DNA from: Planctomycetota bacterium
GTDB taxonomy: Bacteria; Planctomycetota; UBA8742; UBA2392
Assembly: GCA_022071975.1 (NCBI GenBank)
Contig: JAJVIO010000036.1
Span: 1,606-65,605, forward strand
Length of the DNA: 64,000 nucleotides
Reading direction: 5' to 3'
The notes beneath the pieces were generated by a model, which did no database searches, was not told the DNA's origin, and saw nothing but the letters and a program-made list of their open reading frames with translations. The first letter of the stretch is position 1. Every line of letters begins with the position of its first letter. A program made the translations under genes and the position numbers. Of this stretch, positions 55,388 through 59,396 are shown piece after piece.

Positions 55388-56380
55388 TTACTTGGCCGAC
55401 CGCGACTTCAGGAACAGTTCCGCGATTTCGAACGCGGTGATGAGGATGGAAACGCTGGTGCCCACCTGAGTGTGATAACCCGAAGTGCTGGTGGTGTATT
55501 GGCGGATCACGATTACCTGCACGCCCTCTTTGCGCTGCTGCTCGAGGATTACACCGTTTGGCAGCTTGGGTTTTCGCCCCAGCACATCCAGCAGCTTGAG
55601 CTCATCGCGCGCAACGATGCAGGCGTAGAAATACGGGTAGCCGGCGCCCTGCACACGGTTGACTACCACCTGTCCCTGCACGCCGAAGAAGCCGGGCGGA
55701 GAGTCCTTGAACTCCACCAGCAGCTTGAAGTCTTCGGGTATCTGCTGCTCGCCCTCGCCCTTGAGCAGCATCTGCGCCAGGAATTCGCCGCGCTTGAACG
55801 TCGCGGCGGGAAGCGCCCGTAGCAGCTTGTCCACGTGCTCGGCTTTCAGCACCAGGTCCGGCTTGCGGTGGATCGAACGCATGCCGTTGAACCAGTTCAG
55901 GCCCAGCAGTGCCAGGCCGTCCATGGCCACGATGCCCGCTACCGGGGGCGAGAACTCCAGCAACAGGATGGTGCCGCCACCCAGGATTACCGCCATCGCC
56001 GCAAGAGTAACGCAGCCCATTACGCTGCTGGCGTCGAGAATGCTTTCGTCCCATTTCTTCATACGCCGATCCTGGTCCAGGATCTGGCGGATGCGGTCAA
56101 GCTCGGTGCGCTTCCATTCCCCGGCGTGGTGATAGCTGCGGAAGTCCAACCGGTTGTCGTAACCGCGAATCCAGCCCAGCAGCACGGCTGGAACCAGCAG
56201 TGGAAAACCCGCCCAGGCGCTGAGGAACAGTATCTGCAACACCAGCGCGAGCAGCACCAGACCCGCGACCAGCGCGAGCCGCGGCCTGTAGGCCAGCTTG
56301 GGCAGCAGCAGGAACTTGATCACCGGCTCCGCGCTTTCGGCGCGGATCAGTTGTGTTCCCTTCACTGCGGTGGTGGTCAT
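55388..56380 (-). CDS. Hypothetical polytopic membrane protein (third gene of the rSAM cassette)
   Basis: ATG 56380 overlaps the rSAM stop (ATGA). Four hydrophobic helices are followed by a C-terminal soluble domain of about 170 aa. No family recognised. Confidence 0.65.
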   Translation of the reverse strand: MTTTAVKGTQLIRAESAEPVIKFLLLPKLAYRPRLALVAGLVLLALVLQILFLSAWAGFPLLVPAVLLGWIRGYDNRLDFRSYHHAGEWKRTELDRIRQILDQDRRMKKWDESILDASSVMGCVTLAAMAVILGGGTILLLEFSPPVAGIVAMDGLALLGLNWFNGMRSIHRKPDLVLKAEHVDKLLRALPAATFKRGEFLAQMLLKGEGEQQIPEDFKLLVEFKDSPPGFFGVQGQVVVNRVQGAGYPYFYACIVARDELKLLDVLGRKPKLPNGVILEQQRKEGVQVIVIRQYTTSTSGYHTQVGTSVSILITAFEIAELFLKSRSAK

Positions 56381-57750
56381 TTCTGCTTGCCCTTGTTTGC
56401 CTGCTCGATTTCGTCAAAGCCGATCACCCGCCAGTACAGCGGGCAGGCGCCGTGGCAGACCTGGAAGTGCTCACAGCCCTTGCAGATGTCGTGGGCCAGG
56501 AACTTCTTGCGGAAGTTCTGCGCCTTCTCTGAATTCCATACCTGGTCGAAGCTGCCCTCGATGATGTCCCCCACCGGGTCGTCGTAGCTGGCACAGGGGA
56601 TCACCTGGCCGTCCGCACCGACCGAAACCAGCCCGTCGCAGGCCGAGCAACCCTTGTTGCCCAAGCCGTGCAGAATGGGATTGAAGATGCACATGGGCGT
56701 GGGCGAGTACCACTTGAACTCGACACCGTGCCGCTTTGCGCCTTCCAGGATCTGCTCCAGCACGGGGCCCAGCTCGGTGTACTTCACCACCAGTTCTTCG
56801 TTCAGGTTGGCGCTTCCGGTGGGGATCACCAGGTTCATGCTGAAGGTCTGGTTGCCTAGCGTATTCGCCACGAACTCGGGGAACTTCACCACGTCGTGCA
56901 GGTTGGTCTTGGTGATGGTGGTGTTGGTGTTCACGCGCACGCCGGCGGCCTTGTAGTTGGCCACGCCCTCCACGGCGCGCTTGAAGTGGCCGGGAATGCG
57001 GGTGATGCCCTCATGCACCTCGGCCGTCGTCCCCTCGATGCTGATCTGCACCGAGTGCAGGCCGGCGTCGGCCAGCTTCTTCACGAACTCGGGCGTGCTG
57101 CGCAGGCCGTTGCTGATCAGGTTCACGCGCATGCCCAGGGAGCGCGCGTAGGCGATCATCTCGGGCAACTCGGGGCGGAGGGTCGCCTCACCGCCCGTGA
57201 AGCTGACGCTTGGCACCTTGGCCTCATGCTTGATCTTGTGCAGCACCTGCTTCACTTCATCCAGCGTCATCTCGCGGTCGTTGCCGACCGGGTTCACCGT
57301 GCAGTTGCAGCCCGCATAACAGAAGGTGCAGGTCGCGTTGCAGCGGTAGGTGATCGCCACTTCGCTCAGCACCGGGTAGGGCGAGAAATCCATCGTGAAC
57401 GGGATCTTGTCCACAGCCGGCGATTCGTAGGTGTCGTTCAGGCCTTCCTTCAGCATGGTGCGCAGGTCCAGCAGGAAGCGCTCGGTGTCTCGCCACACGG
57501 CCGGGTTGTCGCCCCAGGGAGCGAGGATCTGCTCGATGCTTTCGCCTTCGCGCAGGCGCTTGATCAGGCGGATGCCCTCGGGGTTCAGCTTGAAGGCCTT
57601 GTTGGGGCGCTGGATGAAGACGTTGTCTTCTTCGCGCACCTCGATGTAGTCGTGGACGTTGCGCATCCACTCACGCACCCAGCTCAGGTCCACGACCGGC
57701 TGCTGCACCACGGCCTGCTTGCGGCCGAACAGCATCTCCAGGAACGCCAT
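56377..57750 (-). CDS. Radical SAM/SPASM-domain peptide/protein maturase with N-terminal PqqD-like RRE
   Basis: The start MAFLEML at 57750 overlaps the upstream stop (TGATG), with a GGAGGA RBS inside the upstream gene. CX3CX2C motif CNATCTFC at 57319-57342. The C-terminus is Cys-rich and SPASM-like (GNKGCSACDGLVSVGADGQVIPC...CKGCEHFQVCHGACP). The N-terminal region reads NKAFKLNPEGIRLIKRLREGESIEQIL. Confidence 0.9.
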   Translation of the reverse strand: MAFLEMLFGRKQAVVQQPVVDLSWVREWMRNVHDYIEVREEDNVFIQRPNKAFKLNPEGIRLIKRLREGESIEQILAPWGDNPAVWRDTERFLLDLRTMLKEGLNDTYESPAVDKIPFTMDFSPYPVLSEVAITYRCNATCTFCYAGCNCTVNPVGNDREMTLDEVKQVLHKIKHEAKVPSVSFTGGEATLRPELPEMIAYARSLGMRVNLISNGLRSTPEFVKKLADAGLHSVQISIEGTTAEVHEGITRIPGHFKRAVEGVANYKAAGVRVNTNTTITKTNLHDVVKFPEFVANTLGNQTFSMNLVIPTGSANLNEELVVKYTELGPVLEQILEGAKRHGVEFKWYSPTPMCIFNPILHGLGNKGCSACDGLVSVGADGQVIPCASYDDPVGDIIEGSFDQVWNSEKAQNFRKKFLAHDICKGCEHFQVCHGACPLYWRVIGFDEIEQANKGKQK

Positions 57751-59396
57751 CAGAATGATCCTCCGCTGTGGCAGGCCGAATGGCACGCCGAGTGACAGGC
57801 AGAATGGCACGCGCTGTGGCAAGCTGAATGGCAGGCGCTGTGGCATGCGCTGTGACAGGCCGAGTGGCAGACGTCGATGGCACCCGGGTCGGTCAGAAAA
57901 TCCTGGTAGGTGATGTGGTCTACCTTCACATCAATGGAGCGCTCGAAGCGGTCTGGCAGCAGTGTGCGGTCATAGTCGCGGTAGTGGTGGTGCCAGAAAT
58001 ACCAGTGGTGCCAGCCGAAGTGGCGCCGGTTGAAAGGTTTGGCCTGGTCCTGCTCAGGTGTCTCGTGACCCTTCCTGGTCTGCTCCTGCCAAACCTGGTT
58101 GATCTGCGCCTGCCAGTACTTCTTGGTGGCTTCAATGTCGCAATCCCAGGCCTTCTTCTGGACGTTCTTCACCACCAGGTCCAGCAGGTACTCCAGCTCG
58201 GCCTCCGAGAACTTGCCATCGTCGCGGGCCGCCTTGATCATCTCGTACTCGTACTCTTCAAGGCCGGCGACTTCTTCCTTGCTGCGTTGCAGCACCTTCA
58301 CCTTGAGGGGATCAGCCTTCAGCACCTCGAGGAAGCCGGCTGCGGACAGGCGCTGCAGCATCACGCTCAGGATGCGCTTGTAAGGCAGCTCCAGGAAGAA
58401 CGCGACCTCGACCGGCGTCAGCGTCTCACACACTTTGCCGGGTTTCCGGAAGGTGGAGAGCTTGATCTTGGGCGGCACCCACTCTACCGCTTCCCAGGCC
58501 ACGTCATCCAGCGAATCGCGCGCCCTGCGGGTTTCACGGTGCTTGTAGTAGGTGATGCCCGCAAACAGCAGCAACAGCACGACCACGATCCCGATCAGCA
58601 GCAGCCGTGCGGAGCCATCTTCAAGGTAGTTGGGGCCGTAATCATAGGGGCTGCTGCCCGGGCCGCCTCCCACGGGCGGACGGCTGGGGTCGTACGCGCC
58701 GAACGTGGCGTCGAACAACGCGGCGTCAACGTATTGCTGAACCAGCATCTTGCCGAAGGCCGGCATGCGATCCTTATGCAGCAGCACTTCGAAGCGGCCG
58801 TTCTGGTTGCGATAGTCGATCCGGTATTGCTCGTTCATCCACTTCTCGGTGCGGAAGTGGACCGAGTCCAGGAACGCCGGCGAACGCGGGTCACCGGAAA
58901 CCTCGACCGGGTAGCGCACGTACACGGTGTAGTGCTCAAGGGCGTGGTCCCATTCGCTGGGCGCCCAGTGGAAAACCACCAGCTTGCGCCCTTCCGGGTC
59001 GGTGGTCTGGGCCAGATGGCCCGTGTGGCCGAAGTCTGTGGCGAACCGGAACTTGAAGATCGCCGAACCGCTGCTGATGCCGGCCCCGTTGGCGAACTGG
59101 ATGGTCTTCTTGCCCGAATTGAAACCGCGCTCGATTGGCATGGTTCGGCCGTTATCGAGCGTCGCCAGGCCCCATGCGTCGTCCCACACCGGGTCCAGGT
59201 CGTCGATCTGCGGGCCGGTGAAGTAGAAACCGTGAAACTCGCCGCTGTCGTGCTGGTACTTCACGGCGTACTCGACACCGGCCTTGCCGTCTTTCTGCAG
59301 ATTAACTGTGACTTCGCACCACACGGGATGGCCGGAGCCCGCCCACAGGGCGCAGGGGGCCATCAGCAGGATCAACAGCAGGATGCGCACGTGCAT
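57750..59396 (-). CDS. DUF2207-like single-pass membrane protein with His/Trp-rich patch and C-terminal (Cys-His-Ser-Ala)8-Cys-His-Ser repeat
   Basis: The order is signal peptide [19 protein letters not shown], an ectodomain, then TM helix [20 protein letters not shown] followed by [9 protein letters not shown]. A DUF2207-like segment [33 protein letters not shown] comes next, then [14 protein letters not shown]. The protein ends [40 protein letters not shown]. Confidence 0.8.
   Translation of the reverse strand: [548 protein letters not shown]
57765..57869 (-). repeat. Coding 12-nt-period tandem repeat: nine Cys-His-Ser units (eight with a following Ala)
   Basis: Translated codon by codon, Cys codons fall at 57771, 57783, 57795, 57807, 57819, 57831, 57843, 57855 and 57867. 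The repeat units differ at synonymous positions. Confidence 0.95.

Follow-up and report, generated by a model that had tools for sequence, protein, structure and literature searches.

A candidate membrane-tethered protein-maturation module linking a radical SAM/SPASM enzyme to a Cys-His repeat tail

Within a 64,000-nucleotide stretch of a Planctomycetota contig (hereafter, the window), three overlapping minus-strand genes – g1, g2, and g3 – encode a membrane protein that ends in a Cys-His repeat, a radical SAM/SPASM enzyme, and a second membrane protein. This arrangement raises the question of what the enzyme modifies. A preliminary description had proposed that the repeat tail is the substrate and is modified in situ. 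The three reading frames lie exactly where that description placed them (Table 1), and the overlaps it reported are present, with TGATG joining the g1 stop to the g2 start and ATGA joining the g2 stop to the g3 start.

Table 1. Features of the g1-g2-g3 locus, in window coordinates
Feature	Position	Strand	Description	Basis
g1	57750-59396	(-)	548 aa; type-I membrane protein with repeat tail, proposed substrate	ORF; homologues share architecture and tail
g1 residues 1-21	59334-59396	(-)	signal-peptide-like hydrophobic N-terminus	hydropathy 1.98 over residues 3-21; position conserved in g1 alignment
g1 residues 22-264	58605-59333	(-)	extracytoplasmic part	beta-sandwich ~21-230, DUF2207-N/ribophorin-I-like, then low-confidence linker
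g1 residues 265-283	58548-58604	(-)	sole TM helix, then KHRETRRAR	hydropathy 2.87; K/R 1 before, 5 after
g1 residues 284-508	57873-58547	(-)	cytoplasmic region	invariant alignment columns; AF2 secondary structure, pLDDT ~70-84 over residues 320-450
g1 residues 509-548	57753-57872	(-)	tail V(CHSA)8CHSGGSF, proposed modified core	A, C, H columns invariant in 28 aligned homologues; statistics over 75 loci
g2	56377-57750	(-)	457 aa from MAFLEM; radical SAM/SPASM enzyme, N-terminal RRE-like domain	ORF; Pfam, NCBIfam, PDB profile, orthologue alignment
g2 residues 19-120	57391-57696	(-)	PqqD-like (RRE) domain	Pfam PqqD matches among orthologues
g2 residues 133-290	56881-57354	(-)	radical SAM core, C137-x3-C141-x2-C144	Pfam PF04055 5.1e-28; three Cys invariant in orthologue alignment
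g2 residues 354-436	56443-56691	(-)	SPASM region	Pfam PF13186 6.5e-11; eight invariant Cys: 354, 368, 371, 386, 423, 426, 432, 436
g3	55388-56380	(-)	330 aa; membrane protein without family match, downstream of g2	ORF
g3 residues 29-165	55886-56296	(-)	two TM hairpins around basic conserved ~50-residue loop	AF2 helices 31-52, 55-68, 120-143, 145-165
g3 residues 170-330	55391-55873	(-)	cytoplasmic alpha/beta domain	AF2 pLDDT 80-94; conserved YPYFY and RQ-TT-TSGY-T motifs

A conserved three-gene module

Scanning a single genome from each species, we identified 260 g2 relatives, and the three-gene module occurs in at least 260 species of uncultured bacteria. We analyzed the neighborhoods of the best 80 of these 260 loci, which come from more than 15 phyla and exclusively from MAGs or SAGs. 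Across these 80, the order and strand of g1-g2-g3 are kept and the genes mostly overlap or lie a few nucleotides apart; a g1 with a repeat tail sits immediately upstream of g2 in 75 of the 78 testable loci, its stop overlaps the g2 start in many, and g3 follows g2 in nearly all. The three genes co-evolve (pairwise-distance correlations across 59 loci of 0.80 for g1-g2, 0.88 for g1-g3, and 0.87 for g2-g3), and the cassette is a conserved module rather than a local oddity.

Other conserved flanking genes were not found, with no further family in more than five of about 77 loci. The preliminary description had remarked that the cassette lacks a protease and an exporter, and across the same loci no protease or exporter/transporter family is conserved beside it. 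Nor did these loci contain an alternative conserved small-peptide neighbor of g2. Three loci (L034, L043, and L044) encode g2 with no g1 within 6 kb, two of them retaining g3 – an observation that runs against the mechanism proposed below. In L086, g1-like and g2-like genes adjoin in a different, divergent arrangement.

The enzyme and its membrane partners

The g2 product is, as first described, a radical SAM/SPASM protein with a CNATCTFC motif (Pfam matches in Table 1), and the Cys complement of its SPASM region is predicted to be enough for two auxiliary [4Fe-4S] clusters. The PqqD-like N-terminus ascribed to it was not recovered for the window protein itself (Pfam E=0.18), but 14 of 32 orthologous N-terminal domains match the model (best 2.7e-5), and the distant L086 orthologue scores 28 bits against a gathering score of 23.4. 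Judged by sequence, the RRE assignment holds by transitive homology. The N-terminal domain also has a weak match to the lasso-peptide RRE TfuB1 (6jx3_B; E 0.14), and the profile alignment of g2 with TigE (8VPO) begins within TigE's RRE. The RRE domain points to a peptide or a protein as the substrate. The nearest solved relatives in PDB profile searches – SkfB, PqqE, anSME, SuiB, CteB, and TigE – are peptide- or protein-modifying SPASM enzymes.

Curated NCBIfam models point elsewhere. Among these, g2 scores highest against the tetrapyrrole enzymes AhbD (152 bits), NirJ2 (137), AhbC (104), and NirJ (101) and not against a thioether synthase, an observation unfavorable to the chemistry we propose, with no specific cut-off reached and all scores far below the curated 500-650 bits. 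These matches raise an alternative in which the tail is a cofactor carrier: g2 would attach or tailor a tetrapyrrole or metal cofactor in the cytoplasm to give a membrane-tethered redox chain, with paired repeat units acting as overlapping C-x3-C-H sites (a variant of the c-type heme-binding motif) or as a Cys/His metal-binding ladder. The near-invariant His after each Cys, a near-constant count of 8 Cys in main-clade tails, and an aromatic Trp/Tyr/His patch ahead of the tail would all suit it. Generic SPASM enzymes, however, often score against NirJ/PqqE-type models, and AhbD and NirJ lack the RRE found in g2. Further, the last main-clade Cys is followed by Val rather than His, and tails across the family have anywhere from 3 to 11 Cys. 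Four hemes on 32 residues would be without a protein shell, and we know of no case of covalent heme attachment in the cytoplasm. We consider cofactor loading of the tail improbable.

Hydropathy and K/R counts agree with the earlier assignment of a signal segment, one TM helix, and a cytoplasmic C-terminal part to g1. The C-terminus should be cytoplasmic because K/R residues are more numerous after the TM helix than before it; K285 is invariant across the alignment of 28 homologues. Outside the membrane, AF2 models ~residues 21-230 at pLDDT 80-96 and residues 233-264 at <50. Foldseek matched this ectodomain to ribophorin I in OST (8pn9_E, 6s7o_E; E 5e-7 to 2e-6) and to the N-terminal domains of M1 aminopeptidases. 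The proposed DUF2207 likeness stands for the family (13 of 28 members match), but the window protein, at 19.5 bits, falls short of the 24.4-bit threshold. That the window proteins fall below both the PqqD and DUF2207 thresholds weighs against the proposed mechanism. Neither Pfam nor NCBIfam contains a model that g1 matches at cut-off.

On the cytoplasmic side, AF2 and the alignment suggest a winged-helix-like fold (~326-370) and a helical bundle with an invariant K-x-W-D-x-D-x-x-x-T motif. The aromatic patch, reported previously as rich in His and Trp, is present as a 14-residue stretch. About 20 residues ahead of the first Cys lies a conserved YE..IPV..DH-type motif (ten residues in the window protein), a candidate leader-like recognition site.

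For g3, a hydropathy scan flags three TM segments (29-47, 50-68, and 123-141) of the four AF2 helices. K/R residues fall on the N-terminal, central-loop, and C-terminal sides, and the loop between the hairpins, with conserved columns W89, W110, D111, and D116, is predicted to be cytoplasmic. In the predicted topology (AF2, hydropathy, and K/R), the repeat tail shares its side of the membrane with the soluble parts of g3 and with the enzyme, which is cytoplasmic. Searches of Pfam, NCBIfam, PADLOC, and PDB sequences with g3 yielded no match reaching cut-off, and Foldseek found nothing significant for its alpha/beta domain (best matches AmyR of the YbjN family and the T3SS chaperone Spa15, E about 0.1-0.4). 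The g3 alignment contains no conserved Cys, repeat, or candidate core, and AF2, Foldseek, and database searches revealed no transporter features.

The Cys-His tail as the likely substrate

The repeat end of g1 is as originally reported, with 9 Cys and 9 His within the last 40 residues. Among the aligned homologues the fourth position of the unit is S, D, N, G, A, or H, and mean identity of the g1 body outside the tail is 43%. The tails contain from about 3 up to 11 repeats. His directly follows Cys in nearly every unit, and the residue at i+3 from each Cys is A or G, which also holds for the final CVSG or CHSG unit. A search with a tail-less g1 query recovered relatives down to 25-36% identity, and among these every complete gene read in the correct frame has an (ACHx)n-ACVSGG end.

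We considered whether low complexity or slippage could have produced the tail as an artefact, or whether it is the functionless end of a pseudogene. It is a short-period repeat within high-GC DNA, and in several database entries the called gene runs through it out of frame. Yet one 35-residue tail is identical as protein in 32 loci at a mean nucleotide identity of 78% (range 62-92%), with Ser encoded by TCN as well as AGY codons, and the tail occurs across more than 15 phyla. Codons are likewise mixed in the window repeat (Ser TCG, AGC, TCA, TCT; Cys TGC, TGT; His CAC, CAT). Mixed codons and recurrence in 75 independent loci indicate that the tail is not due to chance; we rejected the artefact, whose probability we regard as negligible. 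The A, C, and H positions are under extreme protein-level selection.

A conserved tail could also act unmodified, binding or sensing metals such as Zn, Cu, Ni, or Fe by means of His-x-x-Cys pairs, perhaps bridging two g1 chains, while g2 acts on something else, such as g3 or a small molecule, and the linkage reflects a shared pathway. Cys/His-rich tails are classic metal binders, the H-x-A-C spacing would suit chelation along a helix, and the three loci lacking a nearby g1 fit a g2 that acts elsewhere. But the RRE argues for a peptide or protein substrate, g3 offers no candidate core, and g1 overlaps g2 in many loci; metal binding alone does not require the Ala that is invariant in every unit. 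We therefore view an unmodified tail as unlikely. AF2 models the tail at an uninformative pLDDT of about 30, and the Cys and His stripes that may run along a helical tail are a picture from this low-confidence model.

The combination of an RRE-SPASM enzyme with a C-terminal repeated core, preceded by a conserved motif at the position of a leader recognition site, is the typical layout of a RiPP. Here g1 would be an outsized precursor – leader plus anchor – from which a housekeeping protease frees a small modified Cys/His-rich peptide for release or export. Against this, the ~500-residue 'leader' is itself conserved, with a folded ectodomain and cytoplasmic domain, and the alignment contains no conserved GG/GA cleavage-type motif between body and tail. 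The missing protease and transporter families and the lack of transporter features in g3 also argue against a released peptide, which we think has little likelihood.

The preliminary interpretation of the tail as substrate is supported at the sequence level: testable loci with the enzyme nearly always have the tail, complete relatives of g1 keep it, and no competing peptide adjoins g2. We judge it probable that the cassette is a self-contained protein-maturation module at the inner face of the cytoplasmic membrane, in which g2 modifies the tethered tail of g1. The variable repeat number is easier to reconcile with modification unit by unit than with a single fixed cluster site, and the most likely activity is iterative in situ modification, perhaps forming thioethers. 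The substrate would display its ribophorin-I/DUF2207-like domain outside and, beyond a single TM helix, hold a ~220-residue cytoplasmic domain and a C-(H-x-A-C)n tail inside. g2 would dock through its PqqD-like domain, likely on the motif upstream of the first Cys, and would modify each four-residue unit successively by 5'-deoxyadenosyl radical chemistry aided by its two auxiliary Fe-S clusters. By analogy with related enzymes, the most likely product is a single intramolecular thioether in each unit that links the sulfur of Cys with a carbon of a residue close by. Akin to the NxxC, CxxxD, and sactionine crosslinks formed by related RRE-SPASM enzymes, such bonds would make the tail a rigid polycyclic ladder still displaying its His side chains. 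The modified tail would stay on g1, neither cleaved nor exported, and g3 may be a membrane-anchored cytoplasmic accessory that serves as tail scaffold or chaperone, or as a binding partner.

Relation to known systems

Within the limits of what can be checked, the system is undescribed, as claimed: g1 and g3 have no Pfam or NCBIfam match above cut-off, g2 has no specific NCBIfam match above cut-off, and a literature search found neither a publication on the module nor a family name for it. The invariant His beside every Cys counts against the thioether reading, since to our knowledge no thioether system requires it. Among described systems the closest analogue is TIGR04117, the family of CXXX-repeat radical-SAM targets, whose score of 21 bits lies below its cut-off of 50. 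Short tandem repeats, TVGG and TIGSVS among them, are known targets of RRE-SPASM enzymes (PMC10878394). The pairing of g2 with a membrane protein that ends in a near-invariant Ala-Cys-His-x repeat suggests a new type of enzymatic modification that is installed directly on a membrane protein.

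Organization of the cassette and its gene products

We examined three minus-strand genes in the window: g1, which encodes a membrane protein with a Cys-His repeat tail, g2, which encodes a radical SAM (rSAM)/SPASM enzyme, and g3, which encodes a membrane partner protein. The three open reading frames (ORFs) lie where the preliminary description had placed them, and the overlaps that it reported were recovered. The g1/g2 junction reads ...GGAGGATCATTCTGATGGCG... and the g2/g3 junction reads ATGA, so that the g1 stop and g2 start codons share one base and g2 and g3 share four. Promoter and terminator scans did not exceed shuffled expectation and are uninformative on operon boundaries.

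Coordinates of the cassette genes, of neighbouring features in the window and of features in homologous loci (L0xx) and proteins (P0xxx)
Feature	Location	Positions	Strand	Details
g1	window	57750-59396	-	548 aa ORF
g2	window	56377-57750	-	457 aa ORF
g3	window	55388-56380	-	330 aa ORF
GGAGGA (tail-end Gly-Gly codons)	window	57753-57770	-	8 nt 5' of g2 ATG
Repeat DNA open in second frame	window	57750-57846	-	g2 ORF lengthened upstream to 57846
Second-frame repeat case	L008	1-100		
Second-frame repeat cases	P0164, P0171, P0200, P0276			
A2M-like gene	window	49018-55281	-	2087 aa
Long single ORF	window	30013-48999	-	6328 aa
Ferredoxin-NrfD fusion gene	window	59534-61144	+	
Group II intron RT/maturase ORF	L064	326-1831		Lentisphaeria MAG
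Split g1	L006	5300-6006		Planctomycetota MAG FR_29
Gly-rich ending after repeat	L025	3230-5631		Candidatus Vecturithrix
Gly-rich ending after repeat	L039	4433-5926		Candidatus Vecturithrix
Distant version of the cassette	L086	1-3595		GCA_054388215.1

The N-terminus of the g1 protein is hydrophobic, a single TM helix spans residues 265-283, and members of the g1 family are membrane proteins of 520-600 aa. Lys/Arg residues number one before the helix and five after it, which puts the final ~265 residues on the predicted cytoplasmic side – the placement originally proposed for the tail. The ectodomain was modelled confidently by AF2 (pLDDT 80-96), and Foldseek matched its fold to ribophorin I of the oligosaccharyltransferase complex and to the N-terminal beta-sandwich of M1 aminopeptidase (E 5e-7 to 1e-5). 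The preliminary description had called g1 DUF2207-like. The window protein itself is sub-threshold (19.5 bits vs the PF09972 gathering value of 24.4); in its family, 13 of 28 members match at E<=0.01 (best 6.4e-6). Full-length g1 had no NCBIfam match.

The cytoplasmic part of g1 contains a winged-helix-like unit, an invariant K-x-W-D-x-D-x-x-x-T motif in its helical region, a Trp/Tyr/His-rich patch and, ~20 residues ahead of the first Cys, a conserved YE..IPV..DH-type motif. As first described, V(CHSA)8CHSGGSF closes the protein, and Cys and His each occur nine times in its last 40 residues. The AF2 models were built on shallow alignments (14 and 10 sequences). Both the tail and residues 288-317 of g1 were modelled with pLDDT <50, and the tail conformation is thus not inferable from the model.

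The domain identities proposed for the catalytic and C-terminal parts of g2 are clear. The CX3CX2C motif is present as C137NATC141TFC144, with all three Cys invariant in 16 orthologues, and the protein matches PF04055 (5.1e-28, 98.8 bits vs 29.5) and the SPASM model PF13186 (6.5e-11, 42.8 bits vs 21.5). Eight Cys of the SPASM region are likewise invariant in the 16 orthologues, including C423-x2-C426-x5-C432-x3-C436 – a predicted complement that is enough for two auxiliary clusters. The nearest solved structures in a PDB profile search were SkfB, PqqE, anSME, SuiB, CteB and TigE. Among the 81 matched NCBIfam families, the 25 best-scoring all fell far below their curated cut-offs, with top scores for AhbD (152 bits vs 500) and NirJ2 (137 vs 500).

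An extra conserved domain occupies the first ~120 residues of g2. The proposal that this domain is PqqD-like is sub-threshold for the window protein (E 0.18) but gains from its relatives: 14 of the 32 domains from orthologues are recognized by PF05402 (best 2.7e-5), and the distant orthologue in L086 scores 28 bits vs a gathering value of 23.4. The profile alignment of g2 to TigE also begins within the crystallographically defined RRE of TigE. When the N-terminal domain alone was compared with PDB profiles, genuine matches stayed below significance (TfuB1, E 0.14), so the RRE assignment rests on the Pfam PqqD results. By transitive homology, we accept the domain as a predicted PqqD-like recognition element. 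A Cas9 match to the same domain (1.3e-3) covers a non-homologous helical stretch and was dismissed as chance.

Consistent with the initial view of g3 as polytopic, its AF2 model (pLDDT 76.5) shows two TM hairpins and a conserved loop rich in basic residues, and it ends in an alpha/beta domain that is modelled confidently. Lys/Arg counts put the N-terminus, the loop and the C-domain all on the cytoplasmic side, which is also the side of the g1 tail. We found no Pfam, NCBIfam or PADLOC match for g3, and a PDB sequence profile search returned 0 matches at E<=10. Foldseek gave nothing significant, its best matches being a YbjN-family protein and a type III secretion chaperone (E ~0.1-0.4) – a weak hint that the modelled C-domain may have a peptide-binding chaperone-like fold. 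The protein lacks conserved Cys or His, which makes a redox-enzyme role unlikely.

Several genes flank the cassette in the window. A gene for a bacterial alpha-2-macroglobulin (A2M)-like protein with MG2, A2M, TED and bMG10 domains starts 106 nt 3' of g3 and is separated by an 18-nt gap from a very long single ORF on the same strand; elsewhere, neither is conserved beside the cassette. On the other side, 137 nt from g1 and transcribed away from it, is a gene for a 4Fe-4S dicluster ferredoxin fused to an NrfD/polysulfide-reductase membrane domain (Fer4_11 2e-25, NrfD 1e-15). This fusion probably belongs to a molybdopterin oxidoreductase or alternative complex III-like operon and is not linked to the cassette elsewhere.

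Conservation of the tail and linkage of the three genes

By sequence comparison, the tail is the most constrained part of the module, and few short repeats could be expected to be conserved more strongly. An exactly identical 35-residue tail occurs in 32 of 75 loci, and 13 of the 75 differ by one residue. The DNA encoding the 32 identical tails averages 78% identity (minimum 62%) and uses all six Ser codons, and the g1 body averages 43% identity. Since the tail is identical across phyla in proteins whose bodies are at ~40%, its exact sequence must be needed, either for some chemistry or for binding. In the window, Tandem Repeats Finder detected only 70-83% matches between copies of the repeat DNA, and the codons are mixed (Ser as TCG, AGC, TCA and TCT; Cys as TGC and TGT; His as CAC and CAT); the repeat DNA is no clean slippage product. 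The occurrence of identical protein tails on diverged DNA with mixed codons excludes a reading of the repeat as slippage or artefact.

We also searched 1.84 billion representative proteins with a g1 query from which the tail had been removed. Only 297 relatives were recovered; those that are complete and in frame, even at 25-36% identity, still close with (ACH[SDNGH])n-ACVSGG... The number of repeat units varies from about 3 to 11, with the shortest tail reading ACYSACHNACVSGGAR. Selection is visible residue by residue: Ala and Cys are invariant, His is almost always present and each unit is completed by a small polar residue. The residue at i+3 of every Cys is Ala or Gly, including in the last unit (CVSG or CHSG), and in the main clade the last Cys is followed by Val, not His.

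Some relatives carry additional features around the repeat. Six distant g1 proteins (P0246, P0256, P0272, P0254, P0173 and P0179) have an extra conserved Cys motif, S-x-C-F-x-G-C-F, ~15-20 residues ahead of the repeat, and one of them, P0246 (843 aa), has an apparent second copy of the ectodomain. Several distant tails open with ACY units, and some have irregular ACY[AV]H[ST] units ahead of the regular ACHx series. In the two Candidatus Vecturithrix loci, GGGGSSGGGGASGGW comes after the Cys-His repeat, and in one of them (L025) the gene just 5' of g1 encodes a TPM-domain protein (PF04536, 1.8e-38) with the same GGGGSSGGGGASGGW ending. A Gly-rich ...GGW tail, as both loci have, is typical of DUF2207 and TPM proteins. 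These sequences suggest that, in Vecturithrix, insertion placed the repeat in front of a generic C-terminus of the Gly-rich DUF2207/TPM type, and that tails were exchanged between neighbouring membrane proteins in L025.

The tail-end Gly-Gly codons of the window gene form a GGAGGA that looks like a Shine-Dalgarno ribosome-binding site for g2. The end of the tail may thus be under dual constraint in the window's clade. The ...SGGS[HF] ending is still present in Bacteroidota loci with 100-500 nt between g1 and g2.

The repeat DNA is also open in a second frame, in which the lengthened g2 ORF reads MPQRLPFSLPQRVPF.... Public gene calls from high-GC MAGs contain this wrong-frame repeat, as chimeric proteins with PATRPVTRP... 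or LPQRLSLG... repeats. Owing to the open second frame, g1 and g2 are often mis-called or fused by annotation pipelines.

To assess how widely the cassette occurs, we scanned a g2 alignment against 185,579 species, each represented by one genome, and found relatives in at least 260 species-level genomes. The best 80 of the 260 (45-97% identity to the query) are all MAGs or SAGs, with none cultured, and span more than 15 phyla. Judged by their record titles, they include Planctomycetota, Gemmatimonadota, Bacteroidota, Desulfobacterales, Calditrichia, Aminicenantes/Acidobacteriota, Verrucomicrobia, Lentisphaeria, Dehalococcoidia, Elusimicrobia, Omnitrophota, Cloacimonetes, Hydrogenedentales, Clostridia, Thermoleophilia, Acidiferrobacteraceae and Vecturithrix/Moduliflexus. 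One Planctomycetota MAG (FR_29, locus L006) matches the window at 97% identity.

We then evaluated linkage by BLAST of g1, g2 and g3 against six-frame ORFs of the best 80 loci. Gene order and strand are constant almost everywhere, and the genes usually overlap or lie a few bases apart. The preliminary description had singled out loss of the tail beside a retained rSAM gene as telling; we observed a tail-bearing g1 directly upstream of g2 in 75 of 78 testable loci, a count obtained after four edge cases were resolved. In L055 and L008 the tail was located at a contig edge. In L064, an ORF for a group II intron RT/maturase (RVT_1 7e-43, GIIM 2e-15) lies immediately 5' of g2, in g1's expected place. 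In L006, g1 is annotated as 342 aa because a single frameshift after residue 338 splits it; the intact (CHSA)8CHSGGSF tail lies in another frame, and the frameshift is probably an assembly error. The g1 relative P0220 lacks a tail because its contig ends.

Within three loci (L034, L043 and L044), g1 is absent. These loci allow a reading in which the tail is an unmodified metal binder and g2 acts elsewhere, but the RRE, the translational coupling of the genes and the invariant Ala of the repeat argue against it.

No protease or exporter is conserved at the cassette, in agreement with what had been seen in the window: each family of flanking genes is confined to 5 or fewer of ~77 loci, and no conserved second enzyme is found among these families. 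This result, along with the conserved and folded g1 body, weakens the alternative of a classical RiPP in which most of g1 would be a giant leader.

The three proteins co-evolve: the distance matrices of g1, g2 and g3 show pairwise correlations of 0.80-0.88 (59 loci), and the three genes are thus inherited and transferred as a unit. Tail types do not follow taxonomy – the 'Planctomycetota-type' ...CHSGGSF ending occurs in some Desulfobacterales and one Acidiferrobacteraceae MAG – which suggests lateral transfer.

Two loci depart from the usual layout. In L086, a g2-like rSAM gene with a clear PqqD domain and a g1-like gene are divergent, and the 880 nt that separate them hold two small ORFs of 131 and 108 aa; the g1-like gene encodes an extra ~200-residue domain and runs off the contig end, beyond which any tail would lie. 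In L025, a CBM21 and Exo_endo_phos gene and a PLD-like gene are inserted between g2 and g3.

A proposed enzyme-substrate pair

The sequences show gene linkage, co-evolution, the domain identities, a shared cytoplasmic side and selection at single residues, and the best-supported interpretation of the cassette is that g1 and g2 are an enzyme-substrate pair. We infer the tail to be the substrate, the RRE to be the docking place and a thioether to be the bond: g2 would bind g1 via its RRE and modify each unit of the membrane-tethered tail, and the modified product would remain on the g1 membrane protein. One thioether per repeat unit is favoured by analogy, because RRE-SPASM enzymes that act on repeated Cys motifs do so; NxxC, CxxxD and sactionines are precedents. 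We regard thioether chemistry specifically as a tentative choice, quite possible but short of probable. We know of nothing that explains the invariant His. Most simply, g3 would act from its membrane anchor, as scaffold or chaperone of either the tail or the enzyme. The processing of repeats by SPASM enzymes is documented (PMC10878394).

The leaning of g2 scores towards AhbD and NirJ and the invariance of His prompt a different reading, in which a cofactor would be attached to, or a metal ladder built on, overlapping C-x3-C-H units. The sub-threshold level of those scores, the presence of an RRE in g2, the terminal C-V unit and the variable number of units weaken this alternative. A role in anti-phage defence was rejected since PADLOC returned no specific match: g2 has only generic rSAM similarity to viperins, and g1 and g3 have none.

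A broader reading of the pair is that an rSAM-crosslinked or cofactor-loaded Cys/His ladder would stay covalently on the single-pass protein and serve as a metal-binding or electron/redox relay element linking the ribophorin-like extracytoplasmic domain with the cytoplasm. We consider this rather unlikely. Under this ladder reading, the module would be a 'RiPP on a membrane protein' with unseen Cys-His, Cys-Ala or Cys-Gly links, or with cytoplasmic cofactor attachment. There is likewise a real, if minority, chance that the module's chemistry is new, or that a Cys/His ladder built by an enzyme and tethered to the membrane makes it a functional class of its own.

The finding is real, and broader than could be known when the window was first described; it also withstood the refuting conditions on tail and gene neighbours that the preliminary description had set. 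To our knowledge, RRE-bearing radical SAM/SPASM enzymes are known almost only for small secreted peptides or a few soluble cofactor proteins. The module – three genes with a 35-40-residue core – ties that machinery to a tail on the cytoplasmic side of a membrane protein and adds a dedicated third membrane partner. It could give a new type of crosslink, could be the first RiPP-like tailoring retained by an integral membrane protein and could provide a first functional clue to the large class of DUF2207-like membrane proteins.

Relation to known systems

The system had been put forward as undescribed, and this assessment stands as far as it could be checked. Databases label its proteins only as 'radical SAM protein', 'hypothetical protein' or 'DUF2207 domain-containing protein', and full-text literature searches found no paper on the module and none joining DUF2207 to radical SAM. 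We know of no Cys-His repeat or rSAM linkage as a feature of DUF2207 proteins. The ectodomain of g1 appears to be a distant relative of DUF2207 (PF09972) with a ribophorin-I-like fold, but the g1 family differs in its single TM helix and distinct conserved cytoplasmic domain.

Of the named systems, two with repeats come closest to the module. The CXXX-repeat system (TIGR04117) also has Cys at every fourth residue of a C-terminal repeat beside an rSAM/SPASM gene, and TIGR04117 is the sole library model that touches the tail (window 21.1 bits, consensus 16.1, cut-off 50). However, its targets are stand-alone peptides of ~100 aa rather than the tail of a 520-600-aa membrane protein, and His and Ala are invariant in the module's tail, unlike in the TIGR04117 target family. 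We know of no g3-type partner in the CXXX-repeat system. Against NCBIfam maturase equivalogs (the 25 best-scoring of 81), g2 reached at best 152 bits against 500. The ACGX system (TIGR04340, rSAM_ACGX) likewise pairs a four-residue A-C-x-x repeat with an rSAM/SPASM enzyme, and g2 scores 86.3 bits on this model vs its cut-off of 400. Its repeat is A-C-G-x where that of the module is A-C-H-x, and the module's substrate would be a membrane protein tail.

Thioether maturases (NxxcB/NxxC, PapB/CxxxD and the sactisynthases SkfB and CteB) share the RRE, rSAM and SPASM arrangement of g2. SkfB is the best PDB match to g2 (7.5e-28), and CteB matches too. These enzymes modify each short Cys-containing unit once. 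They work on small peptides of leader and core, which undergo cleavage and export, whereas the module has no conserved protease or exporter; the module's tail also lacks the residues (Asn, Asp and others) that serve these enzymes as acceptors.

Like g2, the cyclopropyl synthases TvgB and TigE (PDB 8VPO) are RRE-rSAM-SPASM enzymes, and both modify every copy of a tandem 4-6-residue motif (PMC10878394). The alignment of TigE with g2 runs from within the RRE through the SPASM domain. A Gly-Tyr-Trp (GYW) motif, whose Tyr ligates auxiliary cluster I, is unique to cyclopropyl synthases (PMC10878394); it was not seen by eye in the inspected g2 SPASM stretch C354IFNPILHGLGNKGC368. We rejected assignment of g2 as a cyclopropyl synthase, as GYW was unseen where inspected and the residues to be cyclised, Val or Ile, are missing from the tail.

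Some SPASM enzymes act on full-size proteins. QhpD reportedly acts on Cys of QhpC, with the modification retained, and anSME is also a PDB match to g2 (6.9e-16). QhpC and sulfatases are soluble and are exported after modification, and they have no repeat and no g3-like partner, unlike the module. The anSME substrate motif is C/S-x-P/A-x-R; the tail units, C-H-[SDNG]-A-C, have neither Pro/Ala at +2 nor Arg at +4, and anSME-type formylglycine formation was rejected for lack of the motif. AhbD and NirJ have no RRE, whereas g2 has the extra N-terminal PqqD-like domain and stays below the AhbD/NirJ cut-offs of 500-650 bits (scores 152, 137, 104 and 101).

The module is of a known kind – an RRE-bearing rSAM/SPASM maturase with an adjacent repeat substrate – and differs in several features: the C-terminal tail of a ribophorin-like single-pass membrane protein as proposed substrate, an A-C-H-x unit, a cassette free of release machinery and a dedicated g3.
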